Shown here: positions 7,708-26,553 of the stretch, piece after piece
Position numbering within the stretch: the stretch's first letter is position 1
Layout: each line of letters begins with the position of its first letter
Assembly: GCA_964473825.1 (NCBI GenBank)
Contig: CAYYQL010000001.1
Location: forward strand, 32,001 to 96,000
Origin: an uncultured archaeon
Lineage (GTDB): Archaea; Asgardarchaeota; Thorarchaeia; Thorarchaeales; Thorarchaeaceae
DNA length: 64,000 bases
Reading direction: 5' to 3'
Program-made: the position numbers and the translations under genes
Notes under the pieces: model-generated
Database searches by the model: none
What the model saw: only the letters and a program-made list of their open reading frames with translations
What the model was told of the DNA's origin: nothing

Positions 7708-8790
7708 TTGAACTACCATATCGTGCTCACGAAGAGGTGCAATCTCAACTGTACTTACTGCCTTGAGGGTGAGGAGGATATGGCGGATACCGAGATTCGG
7801 TACTCGATGGACCAGCTAGCGGAATTCCTTGACCAAGATGAGAATCTACAACTCATGTTCTACGGGGGAGAACCAACCCTTCGGATCCCTCTTATGATGG
7901 AAATCATGGACCGATTCGAAGAAGCTAGATTCATGCTGCAGACCAACGCACTCCTTCTTCACAAGATTCCTGAGGAATACATCCGGCGCATGCATTCAAT
8001 CCTTGTGTCAATCGATGGCACAAAGGAAACCACAGACCTCTATCGGTCAGCTGGTGTATACGATAGGGTCATCAAGAATGTTCGCTGGCTGCGAGCTATC
8101 GCGTACGAGGGAGATGTGGTGGCTCGGATGGCGGTGTCGGAAGAAAGCGATATCTTCAGAGATGTGACTCATCTCCTCAAACTGGAAGACCCCCATTTCG
8201 ATAATGTGCACTGGCAACTCAATGTGGTATGGGATGCTGAAGGAAACTGGACAGACTTCGATGGCTGGCTGAGAAACTCCTACAAGCCGGGACTGGAAAG
8301 ACTGGCGGAGTACTGGGCGAAGAAGATGCACTCAGGGAAGGTACCGGGGATTGTGCCCTTCCTACCTACCATGTATACCATATTGACTGGCACGAAGACC
8401 AGACTGAGATGCGGGTCCGGAATAGACACCTTTGCCATTCATCTGGATGGAAGTATCGGTGTGTGTCCTATATCCCCTGACTGGGACTTCTCTATTGTAG
8501 GACACATATCCAGAACACGGCCCCAAGACCTTGAGAACATCATGCAGATAGAAGAGCCATGCCCATCCTGCGATATTTATGACATCTGTGGAGGACGGTG
8601 TCTCTTTGCAAACAGACAGAGACTCTGGGGCGAGGAAGGCTTCAGAAAGGTATGCAGTACTGTTGAACATCTTGTAGATGTCCTCAGAGATTCAGAAGAA
8701 CAAATACGTGAACTCATAGAACAAGGTGTTGTAAGTCTCGCAGATTTCCGGTATCCTGAGTACAATAACGGTTGTGAAATCATTCCTTGA
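7708..8790 (+). CDS. Radical SAM/SPASM protein, TIGR04084-like
   Basis: CNLNCTYC, FYGGEP, CPSC..CGGRC SPASM cysteines, terminal NNGCEIIP; start uncertain (7645 or 7708). Confidence 0.9.
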   Translation: MNYHIVLTKRCNLNCTYCLEGEEDMADTEIRYSMDQLAEFLDQDENLQLMFYGGEPTLRIPLMMEIMDRFEEARFMLQTNALLLHKIPEEYIRRMHSILVSIDGTKETTDLYRSAGVYDRVIKNVRWLRAIAYEGDVVARMAVSEESDIFRDVTHLLKLEDPHFDNVHWQLNVVWDAEGNWTDFDGWLRNSYKPGLERLAEYWAKKMHSGKVPGIVPFLPTMYTILTGTKTRLRCGSGIDTFAIHLDGSIGVCPISPDWDFSIVGHISRTRPQDLENIMQIEEPCPSCDIYDICGGRCLFANRQRLWGEEGFRKVCSTVEHLVDVLRDSEEQIRELIEQGVVSLADFRYPEYNNGCEIIP

Positions 8791-8817
8791 GTCTGGGAAC
8801 GATGCCTACAGCGACCT

Positions 8818-9363
8818 CTAATAGTCATCCTCGATGATCGCTTCTTCCTCTAAGTCTTTCTCCATAACGACAATCTCTTCACCGGCCCGCTCATGGCGGC
8901 TTTTCTCTTCGTATCCCAGTTTTCTGTAGAAGTCAATCTGCGGATCAATTGCACCATAGACCTCTAGCTCAATAGATCTGGCGTTGTTGGAACTCAAAAG
9001 GCTCTCGGCGTAGTCCATAAGGGCCGTGCCTATGCGTCTACCCCTGAATCTCTCTCGCACAGCAACTCGGCTTATCACACCGAGCCTCCCGCGTAGTTCG
9101 GCACGCATGGTGCCAGCGATAATGTCACCCACCAATGCCACGTAGATGTTCCCCATCTGAATGTGCCGAGCTATCTTATCCATGCCTTCCTGAAGCGCTG
9201 CGGGCGGACGACATAGCTGTTTCATGATGGGCTTGTATGCCTCCTGTATTATGTCTCTGACAACATCCACCTCATTCATTCCAGCACGACGTACCCGAAC
9301 TTCTGCATAGTTGTAGATTAGATGCACCACCTTAAAGACTGCTAAGTAATGGAGAGGTATCAC
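8818..9363 (-). CDS. GNAT N-acetyltransferase
   Basis: VAVRERFRGRRIGTALM acetyl-CoA motif and FYRKLGY; true start probably downstream of 9363. Confidence 0.85.
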   Translation of the reverse strand: MIPLHYLAVFKVVHLIYNYAEVRVRRAGMNEVDVVRDIIQEAYKPIMKQLCRPPAALQEGMDKIARHIQMGNIYVALVGDIIAGTMRAELRGRLGVISRVAVRERFRGRRIGTALMDYAESLLSSNNARSIELEVYGAIDPQIDFYRKLGYEEKSRHERAGEEIVVMEKDLEEEAIIEDDY

Positions 9364-9417
9364 AACGACATAAACTATTTGGAATAGAACCCCTAGGAGC
9401 TACTAGTGATTGTTCCC

Positions 9418-9899
9418 ATGTCGAGGATATGCGTAAGAAAGGCAACAAAGCAAGACCAGCAATGGATTGATTGGGTTACCAGAGAGAAGTGGGTAGGAGA
9501 CTTCATTGTATCACGAGGACACAAGCATATCCCAAGCAGATTGCCCGGCCTTGTTGCCACAATAGATGAAAAGCCATGCGGTCTGCTCACTTTCCATGTC
9601 ATTGATAATGAATTTGAGATTGTGACTCTGAACAGACTCCAAGAGCGAAGAGGCATCGGCAAGGCTCTGGTCAGAATGCGATTAAGGCGGCAGAGAAGAG
9701 GGGTTGCAGGCGCGTGTGGCGGATAACCACAAATGACAATACTGATGTGATGCGGTTCTACCAGAAGCTCGGCTTCCGTTTCTCAGTGATACATCGCGAC
9801 GGAATCGTACAGGCTCGAAAGCTGAAACAGTCTATTCCACAATACGGGCATTCGGGGATAAGAGTCGTTGATGAAGTCGAAATGGACTACCGAGTGTAG
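9418..9899 (+). pseudogene. Frameshifted GNAT acetyltransferase
   Basis: ERRGIGKALV in one frame continues as NAIKAAEKRGCRRVWRITTNDN...FYQKLGF in another; shift near 9673. Confidence 0.75.
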
Positions 9900-9973
9900 C
9901 CTTCTCGCAGATGGCTTGTGAAGACGCTTAGCTTAATTAGGGAAAAGGCCTGAATATGAGAGGAGATACAAAC

Positions 9974-10126
9974 ATGACCGAAGATGAAAGAAACGAAGAA
10001 GAGATACTAGAGTCACAGAAGCTCTCATCCAAAGACAAACAAGAGATCCAAGAGGGTCTCTGTGTCAACTGTGCTGTGGTGATGTTCATCTTCATGATCA
10101 TAGCTCTCACTACATTTGTGCTGTGA
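9974..10126 (+). CDS. Small tail-anchored membrane protein (50 aa; not in ORF track)
   Basis: AGGAG RBS; MTEDERNEEEILESQKLSSKDKQEIQEGLCVNCAVVMFIFMIIALTTFVL*. Confidence 0.65.
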   Translation: MTEDERNEEEILESQKLSSKDKQEIQEGLCVNCAVVMFIFMIIALTTFVL

Positions 10127-10144
10127 CGTGGAAGTGACGACTAG

Positions 10145-10317
10145 GTGACTTTTCTTATAGACCCGCCCTTGCTGGTCACGTTCGGTTTCATCTCCTATGC
10201 GATTGGTGCTAGGCTACAGGATTGCACAGATCTTCCCATAGGTAAAATCCTGGCACTGTTCAGCACAGTCACAATAATCTTCACAAGCACTTCTCTGTAT
10301 CTGAACCTCTGGTACAT
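10145..10317 (+). pseudogene. 5' half of host membrane-protein gene disrupted by the element
   Basis: MTFLIDPP...LYLNLWY ends at the left direct repeat and joins in frame to the 26552 ORF. Confidence 0.85.
10308..10317 (+). repeat. attL core TCTGGTACAT
   Basis: Identical to 26544-26553. Confidence 0.9.
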
Positions 10318-10523
10318 AGCAGACAATTCCCTCTCAATATGTAACGGATAATGCCCTTTAGAGATATCATTGCGATATTTTGTGTAGATTCTACCCCCAC
10401 CCCCGTGATATATATCTCACTGAGCTCTCCGGATACCTGGTCCCTCAACTCGTTGGTAAAAGCAGAGAGCATGTCTGAGATGTTCTTGAGGAGTGCTCGG
10501 CGAGGACTCCTATAGGGAGTGGT

Positions 10524-10841
10524 TCAGTCCAGAACGTGAGAGTCGCCCATGTCAGACTCTTCTGACTTGGAGGATGCCTTGAGATGACTGATACGCGCAA
10601 CAAAATCGATATCACGGAGGAACTGAAGAACGCAGTTCTCGAACTGGTTGGCAGTTTTCTTCGTGAGGCCCGTTCCATGTGCTCTAGCGACGAGGAGTTC
10701 TATCGAGTGATCGACTGGCTGATCTCGCGCGATAAGAAGTGACTCGTTGGTAAGAAGAGAGGTCTCCTTGTCTGATGTTGCTGGGTAACTAGCGGCCAAC
10801 AGCTCGAGGGCTAGTTGCAGGGTAACGACTCGAGAATGCAT
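10524..10841 (-). CDS. Hypothetical protein (tentative)
   Basis: 105-aa ORF with no recognisable motif; overlaps repeat copies. Confidence 0.3.
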   Translation of the reverse strand: MHSRVVTLQLALELLAASYPATSDKETSLLTNESLLIARDQPVDHSIELLVARAHGTGLTKKTANQFENCVLQFLRDIDFVARISHLKASSKSEESDMGDSHVLD

Positions 10842-10847
10842 CCCTCC

Positions 10848-10867
10848 GAGTTGGCGCCCGCCAACTC
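10848..10867. repeat. Palindrome GAGTTGGCG-CC-CGCCAACTC (also 11636-11653 and 14846-14863)
   Basis: Inverted repeat read directly; two of the three copies overlap the 14-bp motif. Confidence 0.9.
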
Positions 10868-11228
10868 TCTGAGTCTTCTCTCTACGAGACTAAATAGTAC
10901 CGAGGACCTAGACCACTTGGACCACCTAGACCGGAGAGTACTCATGCTCAAGGAGATCTCATCTGAGACTGCCAGTTACCAACGAGTGAGAAGTCCGCCG
11001 TTTCTGAGCAGATAGGTATAGCTGAACCCATTTCACGGGGATAAAAATGCATGGGCCTCTCATTGGTAAGAATGCCCTTGAGAGCGTCTCTGAGACTCGG
11101 CCAATCATCAAGAGTCCTGTAGTCTGGTTCCTCACCCGGTAGCTGAGTCGTCTTCTGTGGTGCCGAGAGCGTGATTTGACCTCCTTAATAGTCCTGTAGA
11201 ATCACCTTTTGATAGGACTGTGCTGATT

Positions 11229-11510
11229 ATGACAGACAACGATGAGAGCCCGCTCCTGGTCAGGATCCCTGGACGAGATGAGGACCGGTCCGCCGCGAAG
11301 CATCCCCGGCCCCGATGTGGGATCTGTGGACGTCCAACAGTGGTCGCCACCATAGACCGGGGCAAGACCGAGAAGAAGGGGAAGAGGCCAGTGGGCCGAC
11401 CCAGGAAGGGCGCAAGATACACTCGCTACCGAAAGATCGGGAGGTACTGCGCCTATTGCGAGATCTTCTACTATCCCAACGGCACCCCTGACTACAGGTT
11501 GAGAGGCTAG
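11229..11510 (+). CDS. C4 zinc-ribbon protein with AT-hook-like motif
   Basis: CGIC...KRPVGRPRK...CAYC. Confidence 0.7.
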   Translation: MTDNDESPLLVRIPGRDEDRSAAKHPRPRCGICGRPTVVATIDRGKTEKKGKRPVGRPRKGARYTRYRKIGRYCAYCEIFYYPNGTPDYRLRG

Positions 11511-11922
11511 AGAAGAATAGCTTCTCCAAGTTCACGGGGCACGGTCTCCTGTCCTGGTGAACCTTGGTCTCCCTCGAGCATCGAGGCCCACACGTATGGA
11601 TCAACACTCGTTGGTAACTGCTGAGCAGCTGAGGAAGTTGGCGCCCGCCAACTCGTTGGTAACTGTAGAGAACATATCCATCGTCCTGCCTTACTCATAC
11701 ACTATAGCTGAAGAGCAAGAAGACGGGCGACTTTTCACTCACCCTCTGATAACAGCCTCGAAACGGCCTCTCGCGCTTGTCTACGATTCGTCTGGGCAGA
11801 CTTGGTCCAGAGAAGAATTTGCCTTCCATACGATCTCTCCGCTGAAGATTCGGCATCGGAGGGTTGTGCGAGCTCCCCGAGGTTCCCAGAAGAAGGTCTC
11901 AGAACTCGTTGGTAACTGGACG

Positions 11923-12093
11923 TCAGGTGTCCTTCTCCCTGTAGGTCGCAATGAGATCCTCGAGTCGCTTTCTGATTGCCTCTTTGACGAACTCAGCAAA
12001 GGACGTGTAGCCGAGGCCGATCTCTTCATTCTTCTTCTCAACAAGATCCCTCAAGGACTCGGGAATGCGTACCGTGATGTATTCGTCAGACAT
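11923..12093 (-). CDS. Ribbon-helix-helix (CopG/NikR-like) regulator, 56 aa (not in ORF track)
   Basis: MSDEYITVRIPESLRDLVEKKNEEIGLGYTSFAEFVKEAIRKRLEDLIATYREKDT*. Confidence 0.85.
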   Translation of the reverse strand: MSDEYITVRIPESLRDLVEKKNEEIGLGYTSFAEFVKEAIRKRLEDLIATYREKDT

Positions 12094-12184
12094 GATTCAT
12101 CCGAGACCACCGCGAGAGATAATCCCTTCCTATCAATATTGAATCACCTATGACGCAAAGGCTTAAGTATCACGGATGAATCAT
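12092..12184. promoter_or_regulatory. Divergent promoter region with 12-bp inverted repeats and a central palindrome
   Basis: ATGATTCATCCG (12092-12103) / CGGATGAATCAT (12173-12184); TCAATATTGA at 12133-12142; TATA-like TTAAGTA at 12163. Confidence 0.7.
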
Positions 12185-12186
12185 AG

Positions 12187-12351
12187 ATGGCTATGACTGA
12201 ATACAAGGGCGTCAAGATCCCGGCTGAACTGGCTGAGATCATTGACGTTAAACTGGTCAAGGAATCCGGCTACACTTCTCGAGCAGACTACATCAAGGAG
12301 TGCATCCGCAACGATCTCAGAAAGCGTGGGCTCCTGGGAGGGTCGGAGTGA
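12187..12351 (+). CDS. Ribbon-helix-helix regulator, 54 aa (not in ORF track)
   Basis: MAMTEYKGVKIPAELAEIIDVKLVKESGYTSRADYIKECIRNDLRKRGLLGGSE*; TGATG coupling to the next gene. Confidence 0.85.
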   Translation: MAMTEYKGVKIPAELAEIIDVKLVKESGYTSRADYIKECIRNDLRKRGLLGGSE

Positions 12352-12635
12352 TGCGTAGGGTCGACACCGACTACTTCTCCGTCGAGTACCCCGAGGACGT
12401 GACCTGCAGGCCCTTCGCGGTGCAGGAACCTCCGCTCCTCATGATGGTCTTTCGCAGAAGGGACGGACAGGAGATACACTTCGAGACCAAGCCCGGGGCC
12501 AGGGCCAAGACTATTCTCTTCGACAAGGACATCCTCATCATTGTTGTACGTCGCGACGCAGATACCCCCGATCTTGGCGACGGAGAGCAGGTCCCTGATA
12601 TCATCTCGAGAAGACTCTCAGGGGAGGGCAACTGA
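12351..12635 (+). CDS. Hypothetical protein
   Basis: Stop/start overlap (TGATG) on both sides; GGAGGG RBS. Confidence 0.7.
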   Translation: MRRVDTDYFSVEYPEDVTCRPFAVQEPPLLMMVFRRRDGQEIHFETKPGARAKTILFDKDILIIVVRRDADTPDLGDGEQVPDIISRRLSGEGN

Positions 12636-12988
12636 TGGACTGCTATGAGTTTTCCTCGATTTCTCGGGTATCAGACACGACCGGCTTCCATCCGATCAAG
12701 AGCGGAAGGGACTATGCCTTCGAGCCAGACAGGGAGTTCGTGACCTTCTCCCAGGAGATCAACCTCGGTAACACTCCCCTGGAGAACTGCGCTGCACTCT
12801 TGGTGAGGACTCGGAGCCCTGCCGCTGATGTCGCGAGAAGCATCAAGAAGACTGAGACCGACAGGGAGCATGCCTGGGCCGATACCTCATTCTCGAGTGC
12901 TGTGGGCCTCATCCACGTGGTCTCCGACGTGGAGGTCTCACTCTCAGTGGTCCGACCCGACCTGCTCCTGGTCTTCCTGCAGAAGTGA
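12635..12988 (+). CDS. Hypothetical protein
   Basis: 117 aa; translationally coupled; GGAGGG RBS. Confidence 0.7.
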   Translation: MDCYEFSSISRVSDTTGFHPIKSGRDYAFEPDREFVTFSQEINLGNTPLENCAALLVRTRSPAADVARSIKKTETDREHAWADTSFSSAVGLIHVVSDVEVSLSVVRPDLLLVFLQK

Positions 12989-12997
12989 TCTAGGAGG

Positions 12998-13129
12998 ATG
13001 ATGAGTCTGCCAGATCCAACAAAGCAAGAGGTCCTTGCGTGGTATCGAAAGGTCGCTCGAGAAGAAGTCAAGAAGGTCCTCGGGGAGATCAGTCCCAAGC
13101 AGCGGAGAACCCTCCAGGAGGGGATGTAG
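12998..13129 (+). CDS. Small hypothetical protein (43 aa; not in ORF track)
   Basis: AGGAGG RBS; MMSLPDPTKQEVLAWYRKVAREEVKKVLGEISPKQRRTLQEGM*. Confidence 0.6.
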   Translation: MMSLPDPTKQEVLAWYRKVAREEVKKVLGEISPKQRRTLQEGM

Positions 13130-13130
13130 T

Positions 13131-13472
13131 GTGGAGCGGCCTGATTCTATCTCTATTGCGAAGGGCCATGTTGCTCCTGCGAATAGCCTACAGAACAAGC
13201 AGCCACTCTGTCAATCCTGTGCCAAGCGACACTTCTGCAACCAGTTCGTCTGGCAAGTTGCTCCCATGACTACCTGTGAGATGCGGATAGCCTATAGCCT
13301 GTCCTCAGAGTTATGGCTTCTATGGCTCTACCATCTTGCTCCACTCTGCCATGAATGCGCTATCTACCTGGACTGCGAGGAAGAATGCTGCGAAGAGTAC
13401 CACGATCCCCCGGCGGTCTGGTATCTCATGCTTGCCTATTCGTGGCTTGAGAAGTACAAGGAGGAGAACTAG
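13131..13472 (+). CDS. Cys-rich putative metal-binding protein
   Basis: GTG after GGAGGGG; duplicated PLCxxC motif (PLCQSCAKRHFC / PLCHECAIYLDC). Confidence 0.6.
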   Translation: MERPDSISIAKGHVAPANSLQNKQPLCQSCAKRHFCNQFVWQVAPMTTCEMRIAYSLSSELWLLWLYHLAPLCHECAIYLDCEEECCEEYHDPPAVWYLMLAYSWLEKYKEEN

Positions 13473-14444
13473 ATGCAGGTACTGGTCAGGAATCAACATC
13501 TCTGCACCGAGTGTGGAGCTCCCCTCATCTCCCACAATGGGGCTCTCGTCTGCAGAGAGTGTGGTCTCGAGCACAGACGCGAACTGGTCCCAGGGACATT
13601 CAAGATCGGGGAGTCCATTGACTACGGCGAGGACTACTCCGCAAGCAGGTCGACGTCCGTCAACGATGCAGATGTCCTCGTAGATGGTGATGGTCTCGGG
13701 ACTTATATCTCCAGCTCGGTGAGAATGAGCTCCAGTTACCAACGAGCCAAGATCTACCGACTGCAGCAGCTCAATCGTCGCATCGCCTTGAAGCACCTGG
13801 AGCAAGAACGCAAGGTCCTTGTCTGGCTGGGTCGCTACGCCTCTGAGCTCGGACTCTCAGGCCAGATAGTGAGAAGAGCCAAGCATCTCTGCAAGCAGGC
13901 AATGAGACGCCTTCAGCAGGTCGGCGACGAGTTCAACAACTGCAGTCTGAACCGGGTCATCCTGGGCTGCTCTTCAACGATCTTCGCAGCTCGAGAGGCA
14001 AGAGTCCCGATGGATCCCCAGGAGATCATTGACGTCTGGGCCCAGCGTCATCGGGTCACTCTCTGCAACGTCAGGAAGGGCCTGTACTGGATCCAGAAAC
14101 AGACAGGGATTCCGTTCTCCTTCTCGAGGCCGATCGATTATGTTGACAAGACGGTCTCCGAGCTCAGGGCCTGCAATGAACTGATGGAACGAATCAGTGA
14201 CAGGGGACTTGATCTAGAGCGACTGATGCAGAGGCTGCGGCAAGATCTCAGCATGATTCTCAGTGCTACTCCCTCGGTTGTCTATCAGGGACGAAAGCCC
14301 TCAACCCTGACCCCAGCCCTTGCGTACGTTCTGCTGAAACGGCAGTGTGTCGGGGTGAGCCAGAAGGTGGTCGCTAGGGCCTGCGGAATCAGCTACCTGA
14401 CAATGCGGTACGGCTCTAGCCTTTGGAGGGAATACCTGAGATGA
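13473..14444 (+). CDS. tfb: Divergent transcription initiation factor IIB (TFB) homologue
   Basis: N-terminal CxxC..VCxxCG zinc ribbon; cyclin-repeat motifs GRKPSTL and SQKVVARACGISYLTMR. Confidence 0.8.
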   Translation: MQVLVRNQHLCTECGAPLISHNGALVCRECGLEHRRELVPGTFKIGESIDYGEDYSASRSTSVNDADVLVDGDGLGTYISSSVRMSSSYQRAKIYRLQQLNRRIALKHLEQERKVLVWLGRYASELGLSGQIVRRAKHLCKQAMRRLQQVGDEFNNCSLNRVILGCSSTIFAAREARVPMDPQEIIDVWAQRHRVTLCNVRKGLYWIQKQTGIPFSFSRPIDYVDKTVSELRACNELMERISDRGLDLERLMQRLRQDLSMILSATPSVVYQGRKPSTLTPALAYVLLKRQCVGVSQKVVARACGISYLTMRYGSSLWREYLR

Positions 14445-14641
14445 CGATCAGGATCATCGGTCGGGAGCAGGTGGTCTGTGACTGCACCGGCAACACCTCT
14501 GAGACCTACCAGGACAGGCTTCTGGTGGGCATATCCCACAGCAGGGACAGCATTATCGTCCGGGTGTTCTGTCCCGAGTGCGACGCGACCCGTGATTTCA
14601 CCATCAGGAGTGGTCTGCACCTGGACTGGATGTCTCACTAG
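14441..14641 (+). CDS. Small zinc-finger protein
   Basis: ATGA overlap with the TFB stop; CDC...CPEC. Confidence 0.65.
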   Translation: MTIRIIGREQVVCDCTGNTSETYQDRLLVGISHSRDSIIVRVFCPECDATRDFTIRSGLHLDWMSH

Positions 14642-14925
14642 TTACCAACGAGTTGAACCGACCAGGAGAGATTTCCTCCCTGGCGGGAATTCGCTCTATC
14701 GAGCGAGGTGATGAATGGGAACTGACGGACCTGGAGTACACTGTCATGCTCTCGGCCTCTCTCAGCTAGAACAGGCGGTTTCAGATCGCCCTCTCCTATT
14801 TCTTGAGATGGTGCTTAGCCAGAGGTCACGTCGACCAGCTTGACAAGTTGGCGCGCGCCAACTCGTTGGTAACTTGAAACAGCTGCAGAAGTTAGCGCGC
14901 CAAGTGTCAGAGGATAAAAGGGGGG

Positions 14926-15381
14926 CTAATCAGGTATTCTACTGGACGAAGACACATCAGATACATTCGTTGATGAAACAACATAGACGGGCTCTTGGAA
15001 CTGGTTAATGCGAGATGATCTGACAACCCTTGATACGATTAGTCTGACCTTCAGAATGTCTCCATTCTCCAGTCGATGTGTATTCCACACTTCCTTAACT
15101 GGCTCGAAATCAACCATTGTCCGAGTTTCTTCAATTCCTTCCTCTTCAGACAAGGCAAGTGATTTTGCTTCTTTGGATACTCTCACACTGGTGACATTGG
15201 TAGCAGCATAGGCAATAAGAGGTCCGCCCGATATCTTGAGCTGGTGGGTGTCGAAGACTTTGAATACGATGGGTCTGATTCTCATCCTCGAACCATCTAC
15301 TAAATCATATTCATTCCATCCTTCATGGATGGGTTCGAAATCAAGTTCTGTAGCTTCTTCGCTGAGTTTCCTTATCTCCAA
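14926..15381 (-). CDS. Hypothetical protein with an internal tandem domain duplication
   Basis: DFEPIHEGWNEYDLVDGSRMRIRPIV / DFEPVKEVWNTHRLENGDILKVRLIV. Confidence 0.8.
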   Translation of the reverse strand: MEIRKLSEEATELDFEPIHEGWNEYDLVDGSRMRIRPIVFKVFDTHQLKISGGPLIAYAATNVTSVRVSKEAKSLALSEEEGIEETRTMVDFEPVKEVWNTHRLENGDILKVRLIVSRVVRSSRINQFQEPVYVVSSTNVSDVSSSSRIPD

Positions 15382-15383
15382 TG

Positions 15384-15947
15384 CTATCCTCTCATCTTGT
15401 TTGCCTTCACATCATAAATCTTGATTGGATGTGTGTCTGACCAGAATCCCTTGTCAAATGTGGCCAGATAGTCACATCCGAAGTAGCATGCAAGCGAAAT
15501 ATGGAATGCATCGTTTCCACCAATCCCCACCAGCTTCTGGTTCGAGCCTCTCATGGCGACACGGTAGTTGGAATTCCTTAGCTGGTCCAGACCAAGCTCT
15601 AGCACTGCCCATACAAGGGGAGCATTTCTTCCTAGAATTGACAGCTCAAACTGAGTACCTGAAACAAACTCAAGATTCTTTAGAGCCATGATCTTTCCGA
15701 CTCCTTGTACTACATCCTGCTCAATGACTCCATAGTTCGTGTAGTTCTTGCGGACACAAGCTTTCCGAATGACGCTAATCATCTCCATCAATGCCCAAGT
15801 TGAAACAATCCCTGTTGCTGTTCCTTGTGCTATCTGCTGAAAGAAAGCCTTAGTGGCTCGTCTATCTCTACTGCGTCCGTAGCCGCTGAGATAGTTTAGA
15901 AGGACCGATGTATCGATGTAACAGAAACCGGCGGGAATCGAAGACAT
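15384..15947 (-). CDS. PIN-domain (VapC-like) nuclease
   Basis: YIDTSVL, STWALMEM, NDAFH and LATFDKGF acidic PIN motifs. Confidence 0.88.
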   Translation of the reverse strand: MSSIPAGFCYIDTSVLLNYLSGYGRSRDRRATKAFFQQIAQGTATGIVSTWALMEMISVIRKACVRKNYTNYGVIEQDVVQGVGKIMALKNLEFVSGTQFELSILGRNAPLVWAVLELGLDQLRNSNYRVAMRGSNQKLVGIGGNDAFHISLACYFGCDYLATFDKGFWSDTHPIKIYDVKANKMRG

Positions 15948-15960
15948 CCTTTCTCCCTCT

Positions 15961-16359
15961 CTACTTGAGTCTGACCTCTCTCAGCAGGTCCTCGACAGTC
16001 TTATCTTCCTCTCCATCGAATAGATGGGCAAGTGAGCCAAACCCATCTTCAATTGATTCAAAGCATGGATGAGGTAAGGGTCTATCCCCGGCTATAATCC
16101 TCCAGATGCGTTGTCTGCTGTGCTCGGCAACACGCCGTCCCTCTACGGACGTAGTTAGTGAATATGTAGGAACTATGGACACCTGTAGTTGAAGCATGGA
16201 GAAATGTTGTCTTGAATCGGTAGAGCACTCGACAGGATTCTGGGTTTCTTCAGGAGCAACTCGGACTAGAACGCAGTCCATCAGGTTCTCCGACGTTTCC
16301 GGGGATATCTGAAGAATGGATTCATTTTGTTCTTTTGAAACCAGCACTGGACCCACCAC
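15961..16359 (-). CDS. Hypothetical protein, putative antitoxin
   Basis: Directly upstream of PIN; acidic tail FGSLAHLFDGEEDKTVEDLLREVR; BRE/TATA-like GAAAAACCCTTTTATC upstream. Confidence 0.5.
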   Translation of the reverse strand: MVGPVLVSKEQNESILQISPETSENLMDCVLVRVAPEETQNPVECSTDSRQHFSMLQLQVSIVPTYSLTTSVEGRRVAEHSRQRIWRIIAGDRPLPHPCFESIEDGFGSLAHLFDGEEDKTVEDLLREVRLK

Positions 16360-16578
16360 CAGGAGTACCTCTCCGAATTCTAGTATGCCTTCCTCAGATA
16401 AAAGGGTTTTTCGTCAGGGCAATCAGGTCAACCCTATTAGAATCCACAGTGTATCCAGTACCCTATCCACCTTGACCAAGAACTAGAGGGCACTCCTGCT
16501 TGAATGGTCACAGGACTATTCAACTCGTTGGTAACTACGACTTGAGGTTGTTAAAAGGCATTGGCACTACTAGAGACC

Positions 16579-17289
16579 ATGAGTCTAACAGGTGGGATCT
16601 ATCGAACCCAGGATGAGAATGCGAATCTCCTGACGGTGATCTACATCGTCGCTGGTGCATTGACTGCGACCTTCTCGGCTCGAGCAGTCATGAATGACCC
16701 TACTCAGCTCAGCCGATGGCTACTCTTCTTGGTGTGGCTGGCATTGGGCATCAGTATCGCTGCACTCATCGGCGTGCAGGCTCGACCCGAGCGGGTCATC
16801 GGAGAGGGCTTTGCTCTCTCGATTGGTATCATAGGCTACTCGGTCATCATGGTGATCCAGTACTGCATGGTGCTGGTCTCGGCCTTCATGCCCTTCTCCC
16901 AGATGAACTTCTACTTCGCGATTTTGGCCCCGATATCGGAGACCTTCTTTTTCACGGTCACGCTGTACAGGATCATCCGCGTGGCCCTTCCTGCCTTCAC
17001 CTGGCTCTTCTCGAACCTGATCTCGTCGATTACCTTCGCGCTGTATCACTACTTCGTCTATGGTCTGGACCCGATTTCGCTCATCGTCCTCTTCTTGGGC
17101 AACACCGTCCTCAACTACACCTTTGAACTGACGAAGAACCCTGCAGCACCCATCACGGCACATCTCCTCGTGAATCTGACGCCCTACTGGTGGGACGTCG
17201 CGGGTCTCTTGGTTGCCAACTGGTGGATGATTGCACTCCCGATCTTCCTCACTGTGGTGTGCATCATCTGCGGCGGGACCCGGCGCTAG
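16579..17289 (+). CDS. CPBP/CAAX (Abi) family intramembrane protease-like protein
   Basis: Multi-TM; APISET, FALYH and HLLVN motifs (motif 1 degenerate). Confidence 0.75.
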   Translation: MSLTGGIYRTQDENANLLTVIYIVAGALTATFSARAVMNDPTQLSRWLLFLVWLALGISIAALIGVQARPERVIGEGFALSIGIIGYSVIMVIQYCMVLVSAFMPFSQMNFYFAILAPISETFFFTVTLYRIIRVALPAFTWLFSNLISSITFALYHYFVYGLDPISLIVLFLGNTVLNYTFELTKNPAAPITAHLLVNLTPYWWDVAGLLVANWWMIALPIFLTVVCIICGGTRR

Positions 17290-17814
17290 TTACCAACGAG
17301 TGGACTGAGACCGTCCTCTCATCTCCTTGCTTCATGTTGCTCAGTAACTACTGGCCAGTTACCAACGAGTCAGAAGAAGCGATTCTCGACCTGTGACACT
17401 GTCTTGTTGCTCCCCTCAGCATTCAACAGTGACGAAGTTATTAAGAATCGGTCATATCTTGATAGTGTGACCTAAGGTGCTTCTTGACCCAGAGAGCGGG
17501 AGGGACCGCTGCTATCTGTTCTCTATGTTTGACACCACTGAGAGTGGTGGTAGTCTAGACACTTCAGGGAGTCGGTGTCAACCACTGAGATTTTCGCGAA
17601 AAACGAGAATCCGTCTACACCCTTCTCTTCATTGGCGCGGAGGAGATGGGGCAGGGGATCTCTGGGGACAGGTGGGAGGGCTGGAGGGGAACGGGAGCGC
17701 CAGGGACCAGGAGCGGAGGGGCGAGAGGGCGGTGGTGGGGGCGCCATGAAATTTTTGCGGAGGAGGGGGAGTGTAGACGATTAACTATGAAGAATCTCAA
17801 GGAGACGATAGACG

Positions 17815-18102
17815 GTGACCACTGAGAAACCTAACTTCGTGGAGAGGAATCTGGATGAGGCGACGGCTGAGGTTTTTGCCCTGCTTGCAGAGCAGCGACG
17901 TCGCACAGGGACCTTCCTGATATCGCAGAAGGCTCTTCGGAAACAGATTCAAGACCGATTCGGCGGGAGTCCCACGCAGGCCGGCTACCTTGCCAGGGGT
18001 GTGATGAAACGCTTGCAGGAGCGGGGAATCGCGGAGATCTGGGACCAAGAGAAGATGTCCAGCTTCAAGAAGAAGATCTACAAGGTCCATGCGGAGGTCT
18101 GA
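17815..18102 (+). CDS. Small basic protein, probable winged helix (paralog A)
   Basis: AAGGAG RBS; VMKRLQERGI..W...IYKV wing pattern. Confidence 0.7.
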   Translation: MTTEKPNFVERNLDEATAEVFALLAEQRRRTGTFLISQKALRKQIQDRFGGSPTQAGYLARGVMKRLQERGIAEIWDQEKMSSFKKKIYKVHAEV

Positions 18103-18104
18103 CT

Positions 18105-18374
18105 GTGACAAGATATGTCGAGCAGAATCTCGAGGAGGCCTACCAGGAGGTTCTCAGCATCCTGGAGGAGCAACGACGCCGCATGGGAACATTCGTTATC
18201 TCGCTGAAACGCATCAGGACCTATGTATCCGAGAGGGTCGGGGGACACAAGAGCCAGGTGGGACGTCTGAGCCGGGCAGTGATGGAACGGCTCGAGCAGG
18301 AGGGCGTTGTCCAGATCTGGGATGAGTGGGAGATGAGGAAGTACAATCGCCGGGTCTACCAGGTCCGTGCCTGA
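18105..18374 (+). CDS. Small basic protein, probable winged helix (paralog B)
   Basis: GGAGG RBS; clearly similar to 17815-18102 (EQRRR.GTF.IS, VM.RL...G...IWD). Confidence 0.7.
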   Translation: MTRYVEQNLEEAYQEVLSILEEQRRRMGTFVISLKRIRTYVSERVGGHKSQVGRLSRAVMERLEQEGVVQIWDEWEMRKYNRRVYQVRA

Positions 18375-18908
18375 GACCCTGAAGGTAAGTTTATTAAGTC
18401 TAGACGGAATCGTAATAACATGCCTTGCGAAATCCTCCCCGGACTTCTTGAAGCAAGGTATTCCTCTCGTGATTTCTGGTCCTGATCTCATCATCAGGAC
18501 CTCTTTTCCTTGTTCATCAAAAGAGCATTATTTACCAACGACGGCTTTTTATATTTCTAGACAGAAGGACTGAGTGTCTTTTCTCTCGGGGAGGGACGAA
18601 AGGACTCGCGCCTCGGCGCGGATTTGCATAGGAAATCATGAGATGAAAAGAATGAAAACTGCCCTACGTGAAGTTGGGACTGGGCGTGGAAGAGCCCTAG
18701 CCTCTCAAAAGCAAGGCTCTCGTCACGACTGCTGCAGTCCCAGAAAGAACAAAGCTGACTCCCCTTATGAAGGCAGCTGTAATACCAGTGGCGTCAGCCA
18801 CTGCGGCAAGATACTGTTTCTCAAGTACTCCAGGGTCTGTTTCGAGAGGCTTTATGGTCCTCTGCATAGTTTCCGGAGTCCGAGCGACATCATCCAGGGG
18901 GTGCATTC

Positions 18909-19631
18909 TTGAACTCCAAGAATGAGTCCACATATATCGTTGAGGCTCAGCCTGTCGAGATTCCGACTCTCTGGATCGACAAGACCAAACACGCTCTCAA
19001 GGAGCTCGAGCGCTTCAAGCGAGAGATAGCGACTCCTGATGACTATCAGACCATCAGGGGCAAGCCGTGGCCCACGAAATCATTCTCTCGAAAGATGGGC
19101 CTGTCGGCCAATCTCCGCGATGAGATTGTAGAGAAAGAGAGAATTGACCGGCAGGACGAGAGCTTTGTGTGGTTTCTAACCGTGAGAGTGACTGCTCCGA
19201 ACGGCCGGTTCTGCACTGCTGTCGGTGCTTGCGACAGTAGGGAGCGGAACTTCAACCACGTAGAGCATGATGTCTTTGCCACTGCCCACACGAGGGCAAA
19301 GAACAGGGCGATTCTGGATATGGTCGGCGGGGGAATGATCTCCGCTGAAGAGATTGAGTCGATTCCTAGTGAAGAGTCGGCCTCGCATGAATCTTCAGCA
19401 ATAGGTAACGAGTCATTATCCGGGGAGAAAATCATCGACACGGTGCAGGGACACGGCCTTGAGACCGATGGAATGGAGGTATCCACGGAGAACGGCCAGC
19501 TCATCGTCCTGCTCAAGGGCTATGTTGGGCGTGACCTCTGGGACCGGTACGACGCAATCATGCGCCAGCTGGGCCTTGCCTATACCAAGCCAGAGGGCAA
19601 GGATAGGGGATTCTGGGGGGTGATTGCTTGA
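18909..19631 (+). CDS. Putative Rad52-superfamily single-strand annealing protein
   Basis: VRVTAPNGR...GAC...ATAHTRAKNRAILDMVG..SAEE resembles the Rad52/SSAP helix motif; upstream of a helicase. Confidence 0.6.
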   Translation: MNSKNESTYIVEAQPVEIPTLWIDKTKHALKELERFKREIATPDDYQTIRGKPWPTKSFSRKMGLSANLRDEIVEKERIDRQDESFVWFLTVRVTAPNGRFCTAVGACDSRERNFNHVEHDVFATAHTRAKNRAILDMVGGGMISAEEIESIPSEESASHESSAIGNESLSGEKIIDTVQGHGLETDGMEVSTENGQLIVLLKGYVGRDLWDRYDAIMRQLGLAYTKPEGKDRGFWGVIA

Positions 19632-21826
19632 CCATCGAAGACCTCGGAGACAGCATCGAGCTAGACGCGAACAACCTCGCAGTGAGGATAGCCCTATCTG
19701 TCGAGCAAGACGGCGGGTTCCTCTTCCACGACGGAGGAGAGCCCTATGTCCACATGGCCGACAACGGTCGGTCTGAGATCACCCACCTTCGCAACGCGCG
19801 TTTCCGCAGTATGCTAACTCATAAGTCGATGAGATATGAGGGGCTACCCGCAGGGAAGGAAACCGTCGAGAACGCAATCCGAATCCTAGAGGCTGTCGCG
19901 CTGTTCAGTAGTCCAGAGATCCGGTTGCATAACCGGGTTGCCATGCAGGACGGGGGTATCTACTTCGACCTCTCAGACATGGGGGGCCGATGTGTACATA
20001 TCACGCCGGACGGCTGGGAGATTGAGAAGGCGCCTATCCTCTTCAGGCGATACAAGCACCAACGCCCGGCGGTCCTTCCAAGCAAGAGCGAGCGTCCCAT
20101 CAAGGAACGACTGGAGAGCTTCTTGGAGCTGGTCAACTATGACCGCGACACCGAGCTCTTGCACCTGGTTGAGCTGGTCTTCAGCTTTGTCCCTGACGTC
20201 CCGCATCCTATCCCGGTTGTGTACGGGCAACAGGGCTCTGCGAAGTCCTCATTCTTCAGAGTCTGGGGTCGCCTGGTTGACCCCTCAGACCTTGAGGATG
20301 CGGTGCTTCCGCGCAAGGAGGTCGAGATGATCCAGAAGCTGGAGCACCACTGGTTTCTTGCTTTTGATAACGTTTCTAAGCTGTGGGAGTGGCAATCTGA
20401 CGATCTGTGTCGCGCAGCCACCGGCACCGGGTTCTCAAAGCGCAAGCTCTACAGTGACGATGAGGATATCATCTATAAGTACAAGAGAGTCGTGGGACTC
20501 AATGGTATCAATGTCGCAGCCGAGAGACCGGACCTTCTGGACCGGTCGATACTGCATGAGTTCCCCGAGATACCCCTAGAGGACCGGATGGAAGAGCGCG
20601 AGATCTGGGAGAGGTTCGAACGGGCTGCACCTGATATCATGGGTGCAATCTTTGACGCACTCTCTGAGGCATTACGAATACTGCCTACTGTAAATCTTAC
20701 CGGCCTCTACCGAATGGCGGACTTCACACGGTGGGGTTGTGCCATAGCCGAGGCCATTGGCTACAGCCAACAGGACTTTCTGAATGAGTATTGCAACAAC
20801 ATCAACACGCAGAACACGGAGGCCTTGGAGAACAACCCGGTCGGTACTGCAGTACTGTCGTTCTGGAATAGCCTGGACCTGATTGACGAACGGTGGAGAA
20901 ATACCCCGACCCAGGCGTACCAGACCCTGACAAAACACGCCGAGGGACTCGATATCAAGGTGTCCGGGAAGGACTGGCCGAAGAGCCCCGCAGCCATGAG
21001 TCGGGAACTAAACCGCCTCAAGACGAACCTCAAGAAGGAGGGGATCCTGTTCGAACGGCCACGAGAGGGGAATGTCCGATACTGGCAACTGAGCCCCGTA
21101 GAAGGTTCCGAGTATGTCGTCACAGTCGTCATGTCGTCACAGAGCAGCGCAGAAGGCGAAATTCCGCCTTCTAACGATGACGATACTTGTGACGATATTA
21201 GCGATACCCGAGAATGTCGTCATAATGTCGTCACCGAGAACGGGCCCGAAACGGCCTCTCCTGATGATTGTGACGCTGTGACGACAATGACGATAAAGTC
21301 GGAAACACTTGGGGGCACCCCGGAAGAGCTCAGAGCCTTCGTGGGTAAGGACCAGTACTCAGTCAGGTTCCTGATAGGTCGCGGTTTCAGCCTTGGAACG
21401 ATGCAGGAGCTACACAGTCAGGGACGAGGAGAGATCGTCAGGGTCGGATCTGGTGAGATACACTTCAGACTGACAGAGAATGGCCGTCAACAGCCTTGTG
21501 AACCGGAGACGCGGTCGCGTCAACCACTACTGAATAGCGCCGGGAACCCAGATCATGACGGTCAAACGGCGGACGTGGACAACCCGGGGATCTCGAGCAC
21601 CACACCCAGACTCTTCGAGCAATTTCTCGACTGGCTCAAGGCTCACGGCCTCGATATGCGAGGTAAGGCGATCACGCGACAGGAGATAGAGGCCTTCTGG
21701 CATGGCCCAGATAAGCAGCTGCATGACTGGATGTTCAAGGCACTCGATGAAAACTACATTAGAGAAGTGGAACCCGGCGTCTATTGCTGGGACACCCGGG
21801 CAACGCGGGAGGGGGTGGTCTCCTGA
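19628..21826 (+). CDS. P-loop ATPase / putative replicative helicase (SF3/Cch-like) with C-terminal wH domain
   Basis: Walker A GQQGSAKS, Walker B LAFDN, RKLYSD, LNGI, DLLDR. Confidence 0.75.
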   Translation: MTIEDLGDSIELDANNLAVRIALSVEQDGGFLFHDGGEPYVHMADNGRSEITHLRNARFRSMLTHKSMRYEGLPAGKETVENAIRILEAVALFSSPEIRLHNRVAMQDGGIYFDLSDMGGRCVHITPDGWEIEKAPILFRRYKHQRPAVLPSKSERPIKERLESFLELVNYDRDTELLHLVELVFSFVPDVPHPIPVVYGQQGSAKSSFFRVWGRLVDPSDLEDAVLPRKEVEMIQKLEHHWFLAFDNVSKLWEWQSDDLCRAATGTGFSKRKLYSDDEDIIYKYKRVVGLNGINVAAERPDLLDRSILHEFPEIPLEDRMEEREIWERFERAAPDIMGAIFDALSEALRILPTVNLTGLYRMADFTRWGCAIAEAIGYSQQDFLNEYCNNINTQNTEALENNPVGTAVLSFWNSLDLIDERWRNTPTQAYQTLTKHAEGLDIKVSGKDWPKSPAAMSRELNRLKTNLKKEGILFERPREGNVRYWQLSPVEGSEYVVTVVMSSQSSAEGEIPPSNDDDTCDDISDTRECRHNVVTENGPETASPDDCDAVTTMTIKSETLGGTPEELRAFVGKDQYSVRFLIGRGFSLGTMQELHSQGRGEIVRVGSGEIHFRLTENGRQQPCEPETRSRQPLLNSAGNPDHDGQTADVDNPGISSTTPRLFEQFLDWLKAHGLDMRGKAITRQEIEAFWHGPDKQLHDWMFKALDENYIREVEPGVYCWDTRATREGVVS
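21116..21294. repeat. Intragenic heptamer array (GTCGTCA / TGACGAY), candidate iteron origin
   Basis: About 10 copies in two facing sets, plus hairpin AGAAGGCG...CGCCTTCT at 21151-21172. Confidence 0.6.
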
Positions 21827-21886: not shown

Positions 21887-22612
21887 CTACTTGGGATCCA
21901 GACCATCCCGTCCATGTCGTTCGAGGGGATCTACATACATGGCTTCTTCGAGTTTCCAAATCCTAGAGAATTGCTGCTCTAGATGCGCCTGGTATTGAAT
22001 GAAGAACCACTCAAGGTATCTGTCAAGATCGTGACGTCGTATCAGTTTCTTGACAACAAACTGTGCCTCAAGCGGAACCAGATTCTCCTTTGCCAGATCT
22101 GAATGCCACGGTGGCAATCTCGCGGGAGGAATCACCAAGTATGTGAGGAAGGTTCGCTCAAAAGCGTCTTGATATACTTCTTGGTCTGCGAGTTCCTCGG
22201 GATACTCTCCCTCCCAGTGAATCATCCGTTTGACGGTGATCTGTAGCACATGTAGCACATCAGAGAGCATCAGTGTAATTGTAGCCTCGTTCCCCGGACC
22301 GATCGAGTTGAAGACAGCAAATACACGCGGGAAAAGACCCTTCCAATGGTCGGCCAGTAGTATAGTTGCAGGATTATCGCTGATTGCCAATGCATGAATT
22401 AGGCCTCGATGTGTCAAGGAGAGAAGGTCAGATGGGTGAGTATGGGGCTGCAAATCATGGACTCCGTAATCACCGGTTACCAATTTCTTCTCTTTGAGCA
22501 ATCCCGCTGCTCGGGAGGCATTAGACACGCCACCCATTCGATTCCCAATAGAAGACCCCTGAAGGGCCAGATGTAGCAGCATGGCCTTCTCGTCCTTTGT
22601 TTTATCATACAT
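21887..22612 (-). CDS. Hypothetical protein with probable N-terminal winged HTH (repressor-like position)
   Basis: 241 aa; LKEKKLV...LSLTHRGL wing motif; divergent from an RHH gene. Confidence 0.6.
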   Translation of the reverse strand: MYDKTKDEKAMLLHLALQGSSIGNRMGGVSNASRAAGLLKEKKLVTGDYGVHDLQPHTHPSDLLSLTHRGLIHALAISDNPATILLADHWKGLFPRVFAVFNSIGPGNEATITLMLSDVLHVLQITVKRMIHWEGEYPEELADQEVYQDAFERTFLTYLVIPPARLPPWHSDLAKENLVPLEAQFVVKKLIRRHDLDRYLEWFFIQYQAHLEQQFSRIWKLEEAMYVDPLERHGRDGLDPK

Positions 22613-22689
22613 TAGAAGTTATACACCTCGCGCCTTACTTCTGTAGAGCATCTAACTGGTTAATAATACTTACTGCATGGCTTGTATTC

Positions 22690-22899
22690 ATGAAAGATAG
22701 TATTGTCACGAGCTTTCGCTTGTCTAGGGATACTCACAGTCTGGTTTCTCAGGTGTGTGAGAGCAGGAGCGAAACCCTGGGCACTTTCATCCGCAGAGCA
22801 ATTCTGAAAGAACTCGCGAATCTGAGTTTTCTCCCCGATGAGCAGAAGAAGGCTCTGGGTATCGAAGTCCCAGACGAGGCGTCTACAGGAGGGCAGTGA
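22690..22899 (+). CDS. Ribbon-helix-helix protein
   Basis: VTSFRLSRDTHSLV...TLGTFIRRAILKEL. Confidence 0.8.
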   Translation: MKDSIVTSFRLSRDTHSLVSQVCESRSETLGTFIRRAILKELANLSFLPDEQKKALGIEVPDEASTGGQ

Positions 22900-23619: not shown

Positions 23620-25329
23620 ATGCCGGAGATAACGGACAAGCGAATACTGAGTATTCCTGCAGATGTACGAAAATTCGTAGATGTGGAAAGGTGCCAGAGT
23701 ATTCCTTCTTCTGTCTACCCTGTCTCCGAGGACTTGCCGGAAATCTCTCTGGATGAGGTCGCCGACGTACTTAGCTCCACAATTGCCAAGGACTGGACCA
23801 CAAAACTCGTCACCTTTATGGTCCTGTTGCTGACCTACACACACGAGGATCAGACAGGAATTCTCTATCAGGCTGGGTCCAGCACCGGCAAGTCACATAA
23901 TGCACTTGAAGTCACAAAGGGATACTTCCCGGCAGAGGATGTTATTAAGAAGGACTATGCCTCTCCAACTGCGTTCTTTCACAAGCAGACTGAGCTATGC
24001 GTTCGCAGCCGCGACGACTGTTTCTATCCTGTCCTCTCGAAGCGAGAGTATGTCAATCGCCAGATGCAAGAGTGGGATAAGGCAAATCCCAAACCAGAAG
24101 AACGGGGAGAGAAGACAGAGCACAGAAACCATCGGAATGCTGCGAAGGGGAGGTTCGCCGACGAGTGGGATAGCCTAGAGAAAGTGTGGTTCTGGGATTT
24201 ATCACGTAGAATTCTTCTCTTCAAAGATATGCCTCATGACCTGGTTTTGGCGAATCTGAGACCTTTGATTTCGAAAGACGAGCAATACTTTGAAGCAGAT
24301 ATCACGGACAAGAGTACATCTGGGCAACATGCCACTAAGACCATCGTTCTGAAGGGTTTCTCTACCTTCCTCTTCTGTTCTGCGTCATACTCTCAGGATG
24401 AGCAGGAACGCACACGATTCTTTCTACTTAGTCCCGAGGTCCAGAGTGAGAAAATCAAGGCGGGAGTCAGAATGGCAATTCAGCGTTCCTGCAATCGCCC
24501 TAGATTCGAGGGGAATATTAGAAAAGATGAGAGGAGGGCAGCACTTCGAGAGCGTGTTCTCAGCATTCGCGCAGCATCTATCACAGACGTAATCATTCCT
24601 GATGACCTCACGCAAGAGATTGAGAACAGAATCTTCGACGAACATGATAGCCTGCAACCACGTCTCATGCGAGATGCCCCCAGGATGATTGCCCTTATGA
24701 AAGCTCACGCACTTCTGAACTTCTCGAACCGGCAACAGAGAAACGGCATCATCGTAGCGACGGAGCGCGATGTCCAGGTTGGCTACGAGCTCTATAGACC
24801 CATTGCTGAAGCAAACGAGAGAGGAGTACCGCCTCAGGTCTATGACTTCTACGAGAAGCGACTAGAACCTTCGATTAGGGCCAAAGCAGAAGAGGACGGT
24901 ATCCAGGGAATCTCCAGAAAGGACTTTGTCCGTCTCTGGTTTGATGAATTCAATGAGCAGATTGGCTACAAACGCATGGTAGAGATTCTCCATCTCATGG
25001 ACAACGCCGGACTTGCATCTGAGAGAGAGAATCCAGCAGACAAGCGCGAGAAGCTGATATATATCCCTGGGGGTGGGGTAGAATCTGCACAAAAAGAAGC
25101 AATGCCTTCAGCGCCTTTTGACAGGTTTCTCTCATGGCTGATCACTCATGGTCTGGATATGCGAGGTAAGACGGTCTCGAGGGCTGAGATCGCCTCAGCA
25201 TGGGAAGAGTCTGATGAGAAGCTGAATGACTACCTCTTCAAGGCCCTGGACGAGGAATACCTGAGAGAGACCGAACCAGGCGTCTATCACTGGGGGTCGA
25301 GAGCCACGAAAGAGGGAATCGTGGACTGA
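23620..25329 (+). CDS. Divergent MCM-like AAA+ helicase with C-terminal wH domain
   Basis: Walker A GSSTGKS, ILLFKD, arginine finger RTRF, sensor-2 R in MRDAPR, MCM-like AHALL..ATERDV. Confidence 0.7.
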   Translation: MPEITDKRILSIPADVRKFVDVERCQSIPSSVYPVSEDLPEISLDEVADVLSSTIAKDWTTKLVTFMVLLLTYTHEDQTGILYQAGSSTGKSHNALEVTKGYFPAEDVIKKDYASPTAFFHKQTELCVRSRDDCFYPVLSKREYVNRQMQEWDKANPKPEERGEKTEHRNHRNAAKGRFADEWDSLEKVWFWDLSRRILLFKDMPHDLVLANLRPLISKDEQYFEADITDKSTSGQHATKTIVLKGFSTFLFCSASYSQDEQERTRFFLLSPEVQSEKIKAGVRMAIQRSCNRPRFEGNIRKDERRAALRERVLSIRAASITDVIIPDDLTQEIENRIFDEHDSLQPRLMRDAPRMIALMKAHALLNFSNRQQRNGIIVATERDVQVGYELYRPIAEANERGVPPQVYDFYEKRLEPSIRAKAEEDGIQGISRKDFVRLWFDEFNEQIGYKRMVEILHLMDNAGLASERENPADKREKLIYIPGGGVESAQKEAMPSAPFDRFLSWLITHGLDMRGKTVSRAEIASAWEESDEKLNDYLFKALDEEYLRETEPGVYHWGSRATKEGIVD

Positions 25330-26543: not shown

Positions 26544-26553
26544 TCTGGTACAT
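26544..26553 (+). repeat. attR core TCTGGTACAT
   Basis: Identical to 10308-10317. Confidence 0.9.

Follow-up and report, generated by a model that had tools for sequence, protein, structure and literature searches.

We analyzed a 64,000-nt stretch of DNA (hereafter the window; positions 32,001 to 96,000 of contig CAYYQL010000001.1, assembly GCA_964473825.1) from an uncultured archaeon of the Thorarchaeaceae. It contains a 16.2-kb element that encodes a tyrosine integrase and lies between the two copies of a 10-bp direct repeat (10308 and 26544). Joining its flanks, as in excision, restores a 120-aa host protein that is 57% identical to the product of an intact gene in genome G035. Between 10448 and 17370 the element carries, on both strands, a 14-bp motif found nine times exactly, once at 13/14 and twice at 12/14. 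These twelve copies had been described in a first-pass annotation made from the letters alone, and its counts and coordinates proved exact on recount. The same annotation had seen no full copy in the other 57 kb, which holds for the 11-mer CTCGTTGGTAA, confined to this cluster, but misses an additional copy at 18530-18543 (11/14) in which the invariant 10-bp core, TTACCAACGA, is intact. The thirteen copies are given below, all of them exact unless a score is shown.

10448 to 10461, plus strand: copy 1 (12/14), conserved in position, some 130 bp in from attL
10742 to 10755, plus strand: copy 2 (12/14), overlapping the stop of the open reading frame (ORF) 10584-10742, in the sense opposite to the orientation rule proposed earlier (see below)
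10974 to 10987, minus strand: copy 3, intergenic
11606 to 11619, plus strand: copy 4, in a unit of about 45 bp (motif-linker-palindrome)
11651 to 11664, plus strand: copy 5, overlapping an 18-bp palindrome
11904 to 11917, plus strand: copy 6, 5 nt past the RHH1 stop
13734 to 13747, minus strand: copy 7 (13/14), inside the TFB-like gene
14640 to 14653, minus strand: copy 8, overlapping the stop of the zinc-finger gene
14861 to 14874, plus strand: copy 9, 51 nt past the PIN operon, in the second unit of about 45 bp
16523 to 16536, plus strand: copy 10, preceding both a TATA-like TTAAAA and the CPBP start, the latter by 42 nt
17288 to 17301, minus strand: copy 11, overlapping the CPBP stop
17357 to 17370, minus strand: copy 12
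18530 to 18543, minus strand: copy 13 (11/14), core intact

The motif is real, element-specific and apparently a cis site not described before, and related sites occur across one archaeal family. Allowing up to three mismatches, the 14-mer gave 17 matches against 3.6 expected, a count reached by none of 100 shuffles. The core TTACCAACGA is present 13 times in the 16.2-kb element and once, inside a gene, in the remaining 3.25 Mb of the genome, while all 12 occurrences of CTCGTTGGTAA in the whole 3.27-Mb genome fall within the element. A host-genome count had been suggested as a check on specificity, and it came out in favor of the motif; the host chromosome shows neither enrichment nor avoidance of the core. 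Aligned, the 13 copies have ten columns invariant in 13/13 and two well-conserved columns on each side, with flanks agreeing in at most 8/13. The motif is the densest dispersed, non-tandem 14-mer of the genome, the denser ones being CRISPR or tandem arrays. The region 7844-14509 is reproduced at 100% by two independent Logan contigs and is therefore no assembly artefact. We found no 14-mer cluster of this density in 150 relatives, the exact 14-mer was single-copy in all 80 listed of 106 IMG/VR stretches, and the literature searched held no description of the word. One 13/14 variant lies at G000:C1:263517, just upstream of a host SAM-synthetase-like gene, where one such match is expected by chance.

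The other landmarks of the element are the following.

10308 to 10317, plus strand: attL core TCTGGTACAT
10368 to 10416, plus strand: inverted copy (82%) of a 3' stretch of an ATPase/helicase gene (25056-25104), adjoining motif copy 1
11923 to 12093, minus strand: RHH1, a repressor-like ribbon-helix-helix (RHH) gene
12093 to 12183: divergent RHH promoter with three TGA-W-TCA boxes, likely RHH operators, and no motif copy
12187 to 12351, plus strand: RHH2 gene
13473 to 14444, plus strand: TFB-like gene (tfb), 54% identical to that of the sister element in G002
17815 to 18374, plus strand: two paralogous winged-helix-like (wH) genes, with weak fold matches (best E 0.013)
25332 to 26474, minus strand: tyrosine integrase gene, the only one found in the genome and without a match to the integron-integrase model
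26544 to 26553, plus strand: attR core

Besides, the element encodes a PIN toxin-like protein, a CPBP protease, a zinc-finger protein, an AT-hook protein and two large ATPase/helicase-like proteins. It is a chimera, its RHH-TFB block resembling the G002 element and its ATPase-integrase block the G020 element.

As for placement, 12 of the 13 copies are non-coding (p=4e-6). Compared with random non-coding positions, both the three copies that overlap a stop codon (p=4e-4) and the four that lie at most 10 nt from one (p=0.001) are in excess, so the gene-end association first noticed in the annotation is well founded. It also placed copy 9 about 50 nt after the PIN operon (51 nt as measured) and three copies just after the RHH1 stop; copy 6 is indeed 5 nt past it, but those at 11606 and 11651 are nearer the end of the plus-strand AT-hook gene. 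The accompanying rule, that motif orientation tracks transcription, was not confirmed in its strict form: orientation agrees with the nearest gene in 8 of 13 copies (p=0.29), and the copy at 10742, an exception that the annotation missed, is opposite. Counting only copies inside or just after a gene, 7/9 share one sense (p=0.09; transcripts are only predicted). A leftward transcript that starts at RHH1 and, in the excised circle, continues across attP into the integrase would accommodate all five plus-strand copies to the left of RHH1, and RHH1 sits directly before the integrase in G020; this account is a post hoc rescue of the polarity rule. A polar terminator, as the annotation proposed, is possible, but the polarity is not significant, one copy is inside tfb and relatives use both orientations.

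One could argue from the stop-codon adjacency and from those 7/9 gene-proximal copies that the signal acts at the RNA level, as a processing site, a site for an RNA-binding protein or an intrinsic terminator. The copies share no RNA fold (folding z-scores of 0.0 to -2.3), match nothing in Rfam, have no U-tract, and none coincides with a predicted stem-plus-T-run terminator. In addition, one copy is mid-gene, another is antisense at a stop, and the promoter regions of relatives use both orientations. We therefore consider an RNA site, also among the annotation's proposals, to be most improbable.

We also looked at how the copies could have arisen. Two further words accompany the motif.

10849 to 10866, 11636 to 11653 and 14846 to 14863: 18-bp palindrome AGTTGGCG-NN-CGCCAACT, a second cis word of the element family
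10777 to 10789, 10814 to 10826 and 17336 to 17348: GTTGC-N3-GTAAC word

The palindrome was found in 10 of 86 family genomes, with 0 for the reversed-pattern control. The segments 11606-11664 and 14846-14905 share the unit of about 45 bp; its 14-mer is the same in both, whereas the linker and palindrome have accumulated indels and substitutions. Likewise, 10763-10798 and 17322-17357 are a duplicated module (81% identical) adjoining motif copies. The copy inside tfb has another history: the gene is collinear there with the G002 tfb, and the two differ by conservative substitutions (SSYQRA vs STFRRA) beside a two-codon indel. A crossover inside tfb was rejected as the origin of this copy, since identity falls gradually with no sharp breakpoint; the copy probably arose by point substitution. 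The best explanation for the set is that one conserved near-att copy expanded to 13, partly via duplication of intergenic modules of 35-60 bp. Duplication followed by retention, together with acquisition or loss under coding constraint, suggests that selection acts on the DNA word itself, as we infer, for the coding copy, from two tfb sequences.

Duplicated modules holding several copies would also fit a repeat that spread passively, without a function of its own, by template switching, gene conversion or as a REP-like element. In the same direction, palindromic words are concatenated in related elements, and L213, an unrelated bacterial contig, has a RAYT-like transposase gene (assigned by inspection) flanked by a REP-like palindrome in which this arm recurs. 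However, no Y1 transposase was found in G000, G002, G085 or G020 (assemblies 88-96% complete), a single motif cannot form a hairpin, there is no target duplication, the copies' flanks have not been homogenised, no insertion was involved in the tfb copy, and the metagenome arm matches were query-selected, without a control. Passive spread is, in our view, very unlikely. The 29-bp REP-like palindrome with this arm is found at gene ends of the low-GC bacterial contigs L213, L197, L221, L247, L281 and L292, and in L221 it also lies in frame inside a gene. In many family elements the 18-bp palindrome and TTTCCACGTGGAAA are often concatenated with the motif core at cargo junctions (window 10849, 11636 and 14846; L184, L190, L321, L330-L335, L337, L377 and L379), and in L321 the palindrome is in frame within the 3' end of a gene. 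The palindrome-plus-motif combination gave a single match in GTDB, which is unrelated.

Among related elements, the sister in G002 has one copy at its left end (L176:8249-8270), in the same near-att position, that is identical in 22/22 positions to 10446-10467, while the proteins of the two elements are about 30-65% identical. Three loci found through protein homology, with no use of the motif, have clusters of TTACCAA with tails of their own: L377 (four copies, p=5e-4), L421 (four, p=4e-5) and L379 (five, p=1.5e-4). Eight further related loci have TTACCAA once or not at all. G049 and G085, found by the motif itself, also have clusters built on the same core. Their copies point both ways, and some form inverted pairs between divergent genes. 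Of the conservation across related elements that the annotation had asked for, one copy is kept in G002 and TTACCAA clusters occur elsewhere, with orientation mixed. Searches of GTDB, metagenome and viral contigs with the TFB or the SSAP-like protein returned no close relative beyond the G002 TFB. The sharp edges of the motif, its invariant core, its retention in duplicated modules and the conserved sister copy support a nucleotide-level signal read by a protein, in keeping with the annotation's claim of a nucleotide-level, element-specific signal. We consider it likely that the motif is a protein-bound double-stranded DNA site of some kind.

The bound protein could be a recombinase. Core sites of tyrosine recombinases, such as loxP and FRT, have a 13-8-13 layout, and dif/pdif modules belong here too. 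In G049, G085, G003, G027 and L377, inverted pairs have exactly 18 nt between their TTACCAA cores (34 bp, 13-8-13), and two of the five pairs lie within about 100 bp of an integrase gene. The motif could then be the 13-bp arm of such a site: DNA that inserts into a secondary site would keep a single arm at either side, so that leftover arms mark cargo-cassette junctions. In G085, truncated 3' remnants of a wH gene lie between cargo genes, right next to the motif. Within the window, the succession of orientations can be read as validly nested brackets (chance probability 0.25), the CPBP gene and the RHH-to-zinc-finger block are each flanked by an inverted pair, and the inner pair 10742/10974 shares 6/8 flanking bases in the predicted register, although this is just 1 of 33 pairs (about 0.13 by chance). 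Against this, inverted 11-13-bp arms around a 6-8-bp spacer, present in five related loci, are found at none of the 13 window copies, which are all single arms; attP and attB have nothing motif-like; the genome yielded a single tyrosine recombinase; tfb stays collinear through its copy; and scars would not be expected to remain 14/14 identical. Moreover, L377-family integrases in G049:C439 and G005:C27 come without such a cluster, and the 18-nt spacer (6/33 across the family) is not clearly in excess. Recombination sites, another of the annotation's proposals, are thus backed by the paired versions of relatives, but most spacer tests fail here, and we regard a recombinase arm as unlikely. A cassette system unrelated to integron attC, through which the mobile elements of these archaea would capture and swap cargo exactly at gene ends by 13-8-13 sites, with leftover single arms bracketing nested cassettes in this element, has a slim probability.

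A conserved host dif-like pair was not found, family counts being similar to those of the reversed control. In metagenomes the inverted-pair pattern matched 101 loci, mostly unrelated bacterial or eukaryotic repeats, with L285 close to the G049/G085 site in sequence; these matches were picked by the query pattern without a control and carry little weight. In G085, L178 and L181 have cargo genes separated by repeated winged-helix 3' remnants, two of them cut exactly at the motif. L184:16861-19528 (G033) is a 2.5-kb mini-element that interrupts a radical-SAM gene and consists of an integrase and some small ORFs; it has a 12/14 motif copy 3 nt after one stop, and the 18-bp palindrome overlapping another stop.

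A second alternative, that the excised circle uses the sites to replicate or to be inherited (as auxiliary iterons, a P4-crr-like region or a dispersed centromere), starts from the position-conserved copy. Here and in G002, this copy adjoins an inverted duplicate of the 3' repeats of the element's own replication gene (window 10368-10416/25056-25104; L176:8200-8239/17227-17266). The replication genes differ, and each duplicate matches its own; the circular form therefore has attP and the integrase between two inverted repeat arms, whose sequence changes along with the replication gene (two elements). The ORF 19628-21826 resembles a D5/NrS-1-type helicase (a lead only), its C-terminal domain being 59% identical to that of the second ATPase, and the twelve dispersed sites of RK2 KorB offer a precedent (PMC3199767). 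Nevertheless, Pfam, PHROGs and NCBIfam scans gave no ParA/ParB match, the helicase gene has iteron-like repeats of its own (21116-21290), the motif is kept between elements with different replication genes, and copy spacing is irregular. We judge this role quite unlikely.

Several observations concern the rest of the element. The unrelated ATPase/helicase-like genes at 19628-21826 and 23620-25329 share a C-terminal domain of about 70 aa; since there is also a second divergent regulator pair (21887-22899), the element is a fusion of two modules. A third RHH-like ORF lies at 22690. The repeats at 21116-21290, about eight GTCGTCA/TGACGA in the linker of the helicase-like gene, are a likely replication origin. 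A 140-bp segment (18735-18874) is 84% identical with G002, above the neighboring genes, and open on both strands, possibly an RNA or an overlapping gene. In three elements the wH gene is preceded by a G-rich non-coding tract (17640-17780; L316:125-150; L377:1620-1790), a possible packaging or transfer signal. The genome has two CRISPR arrays (G000:C19:1-2900 and 17000-18700), whose spacers match neither the element nor the fetched loci.

A reader of the motif may act in trans. The annotation had put forward the RHH, wH, AT-hook and TFB proteins of the element, and none of them emerged as the cognate reader. RHH1 homologues of 62-76% identity keep TGA-N-TCA boxes in loci without the 14-mer, several of them without any TTACCAA, and the RHH pair is an unlikely reader because its own boxes account for its operators. 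The wH pair is likewise disfavored by four short wH loci (L315-L317 and L418) that lack TTACCAA; L377 and L379 carry both wH and core, and the wH family is present in few genomes. Beyond this element TFB was seen only in G002, whose element has a single motif copy, and no homologue of the AT-hook protein was found in the loci fetched. The conserved ORF 12635-12988 was also rejected, with a low-confidence beta-rich model (pLDDT 58) and no match above TM 0.46. Family scans gave no repressor with a helix-turn-helix (HTH) plus a Stoperator domain, the only candidates being RHH, wH and TFB-like. As regards the RHH boxes, they follow the RHH recognition strand (T-x-R type), other strands going with other boxes; the comparison (window 12093-12183; L377, L379, L383, L387, L434 and L435) gives a clean candidate repressor-operator code.

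Our favored interpretation, tentative and given somewhat less than even weight, is that the copies are operators or roadblocks scattered over the regulatory and cargo arm, where they would keep transcription low and insulated. A 12-14-bp double-stranded DNA site with the core TTACCAACGA would be recognised by a co-evolving protein of this family of small integrative elements. Once bound, the protein would damp or insulate operon ends, convergent junctions and one promoter, as well as the route that leads, in the excised circle, from the RHH switch to the integrase, the whole forming an operator or stoperator-like set. Several results weigh against this interpretation. Apart from the missing reader and the non-significant polarity, the replication arm, which silencing should cover, holds only one copy; the single copy of the sister element means that a 13-copy array is not a conserved requirement; and the 18 bp between inverted cores in relatives is unusually wide for a dimeric repressor.

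The self-control of Asgard archaeal mobile elements is poorly understood. The shared core with its tails and two companion palindromes (about ten genomes) make up a small synthesisable set of cis sites, with a short list of proteins, that can be tested in vitro without culturing the host. If true, a polar roadblock would be a new way of halting archaeal RNA polymerase, and a recombination role would account for the swapping of cargo by these elements. To call the motif a new cis-acting system, as the annotation did, overstates the case, as dispersed asymmetric repressor sites of 11-14 bp are known (L5 stoperators, SSV1 F55); it is a well-supported orphan predicted binding site rather than a demonstrated new system.

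To contextualize the motif, we compared it with known systems. Like tyrosine-recombinase core sites, the paired versions in relatives are 13-8-13 and lie near integrases and cargo genes, whereas the window has single arms with no conserved spacer. Features of integrons, which are described from archaea too (PMC9668308), are missing in the element: there is no integron-integrase match, the copies folded as RNA share no hairpin, and the attC boxes (R''-L''-L'-R') are absent as well. As for REP/RAYT systems, PF01797 was not found in G000, and the motif is confined to the element. The OB site of KorB is palindromic and needs a ParB-family protein, not found here; the motif is asymmetric. RK2 has twelve dispersed OB sites at very variable promoter distances, combining regulation with inheritance (PMC3199767), which is similar to our case. 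The nearest archaeal case is the integrating element SSV1, whose F55 protein keeps the carrier state by binding a multi-copy, non-palindromic 11-nt site in several promoters (PMC9608457). In contrast, most copies here are at gene ends and RHH apparently uses other boxes: the RHH promoter has TGA-W-TCA boxes and no motif, and close RHH1 homologues lack the 14-mer.

Finally, Cluster A mycobacteriophages carry 20-30 stoperators per genome, asymmetric 13-14-bp sites oriented with transcription and with a group-specific consensus (PMC9283540, PMC6550527). The phage sites are genome-wide, with a strong orientation bias and a proven two-domain HTH repressor, whereas the 13 sites here are in one arm of an element from an archaeal host, with a bias that is not significant. 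Since the scans turned up no repressor of this kind and the polarity is not established, the motif set is not a member of this class, and a first archaeal polar stoperator system seems rather improbable. It is nonetheless the Cluster A stoperators that the set looks most like: those of L5 and Bxb1 are also asymmetric, multi-copy 13-14-bp sites of a temperate element with an integrase, mostly in short intergenic spaces, and the shared core with element-specific tails parallels the divergence of consensus between phage groups (PMC6550527).

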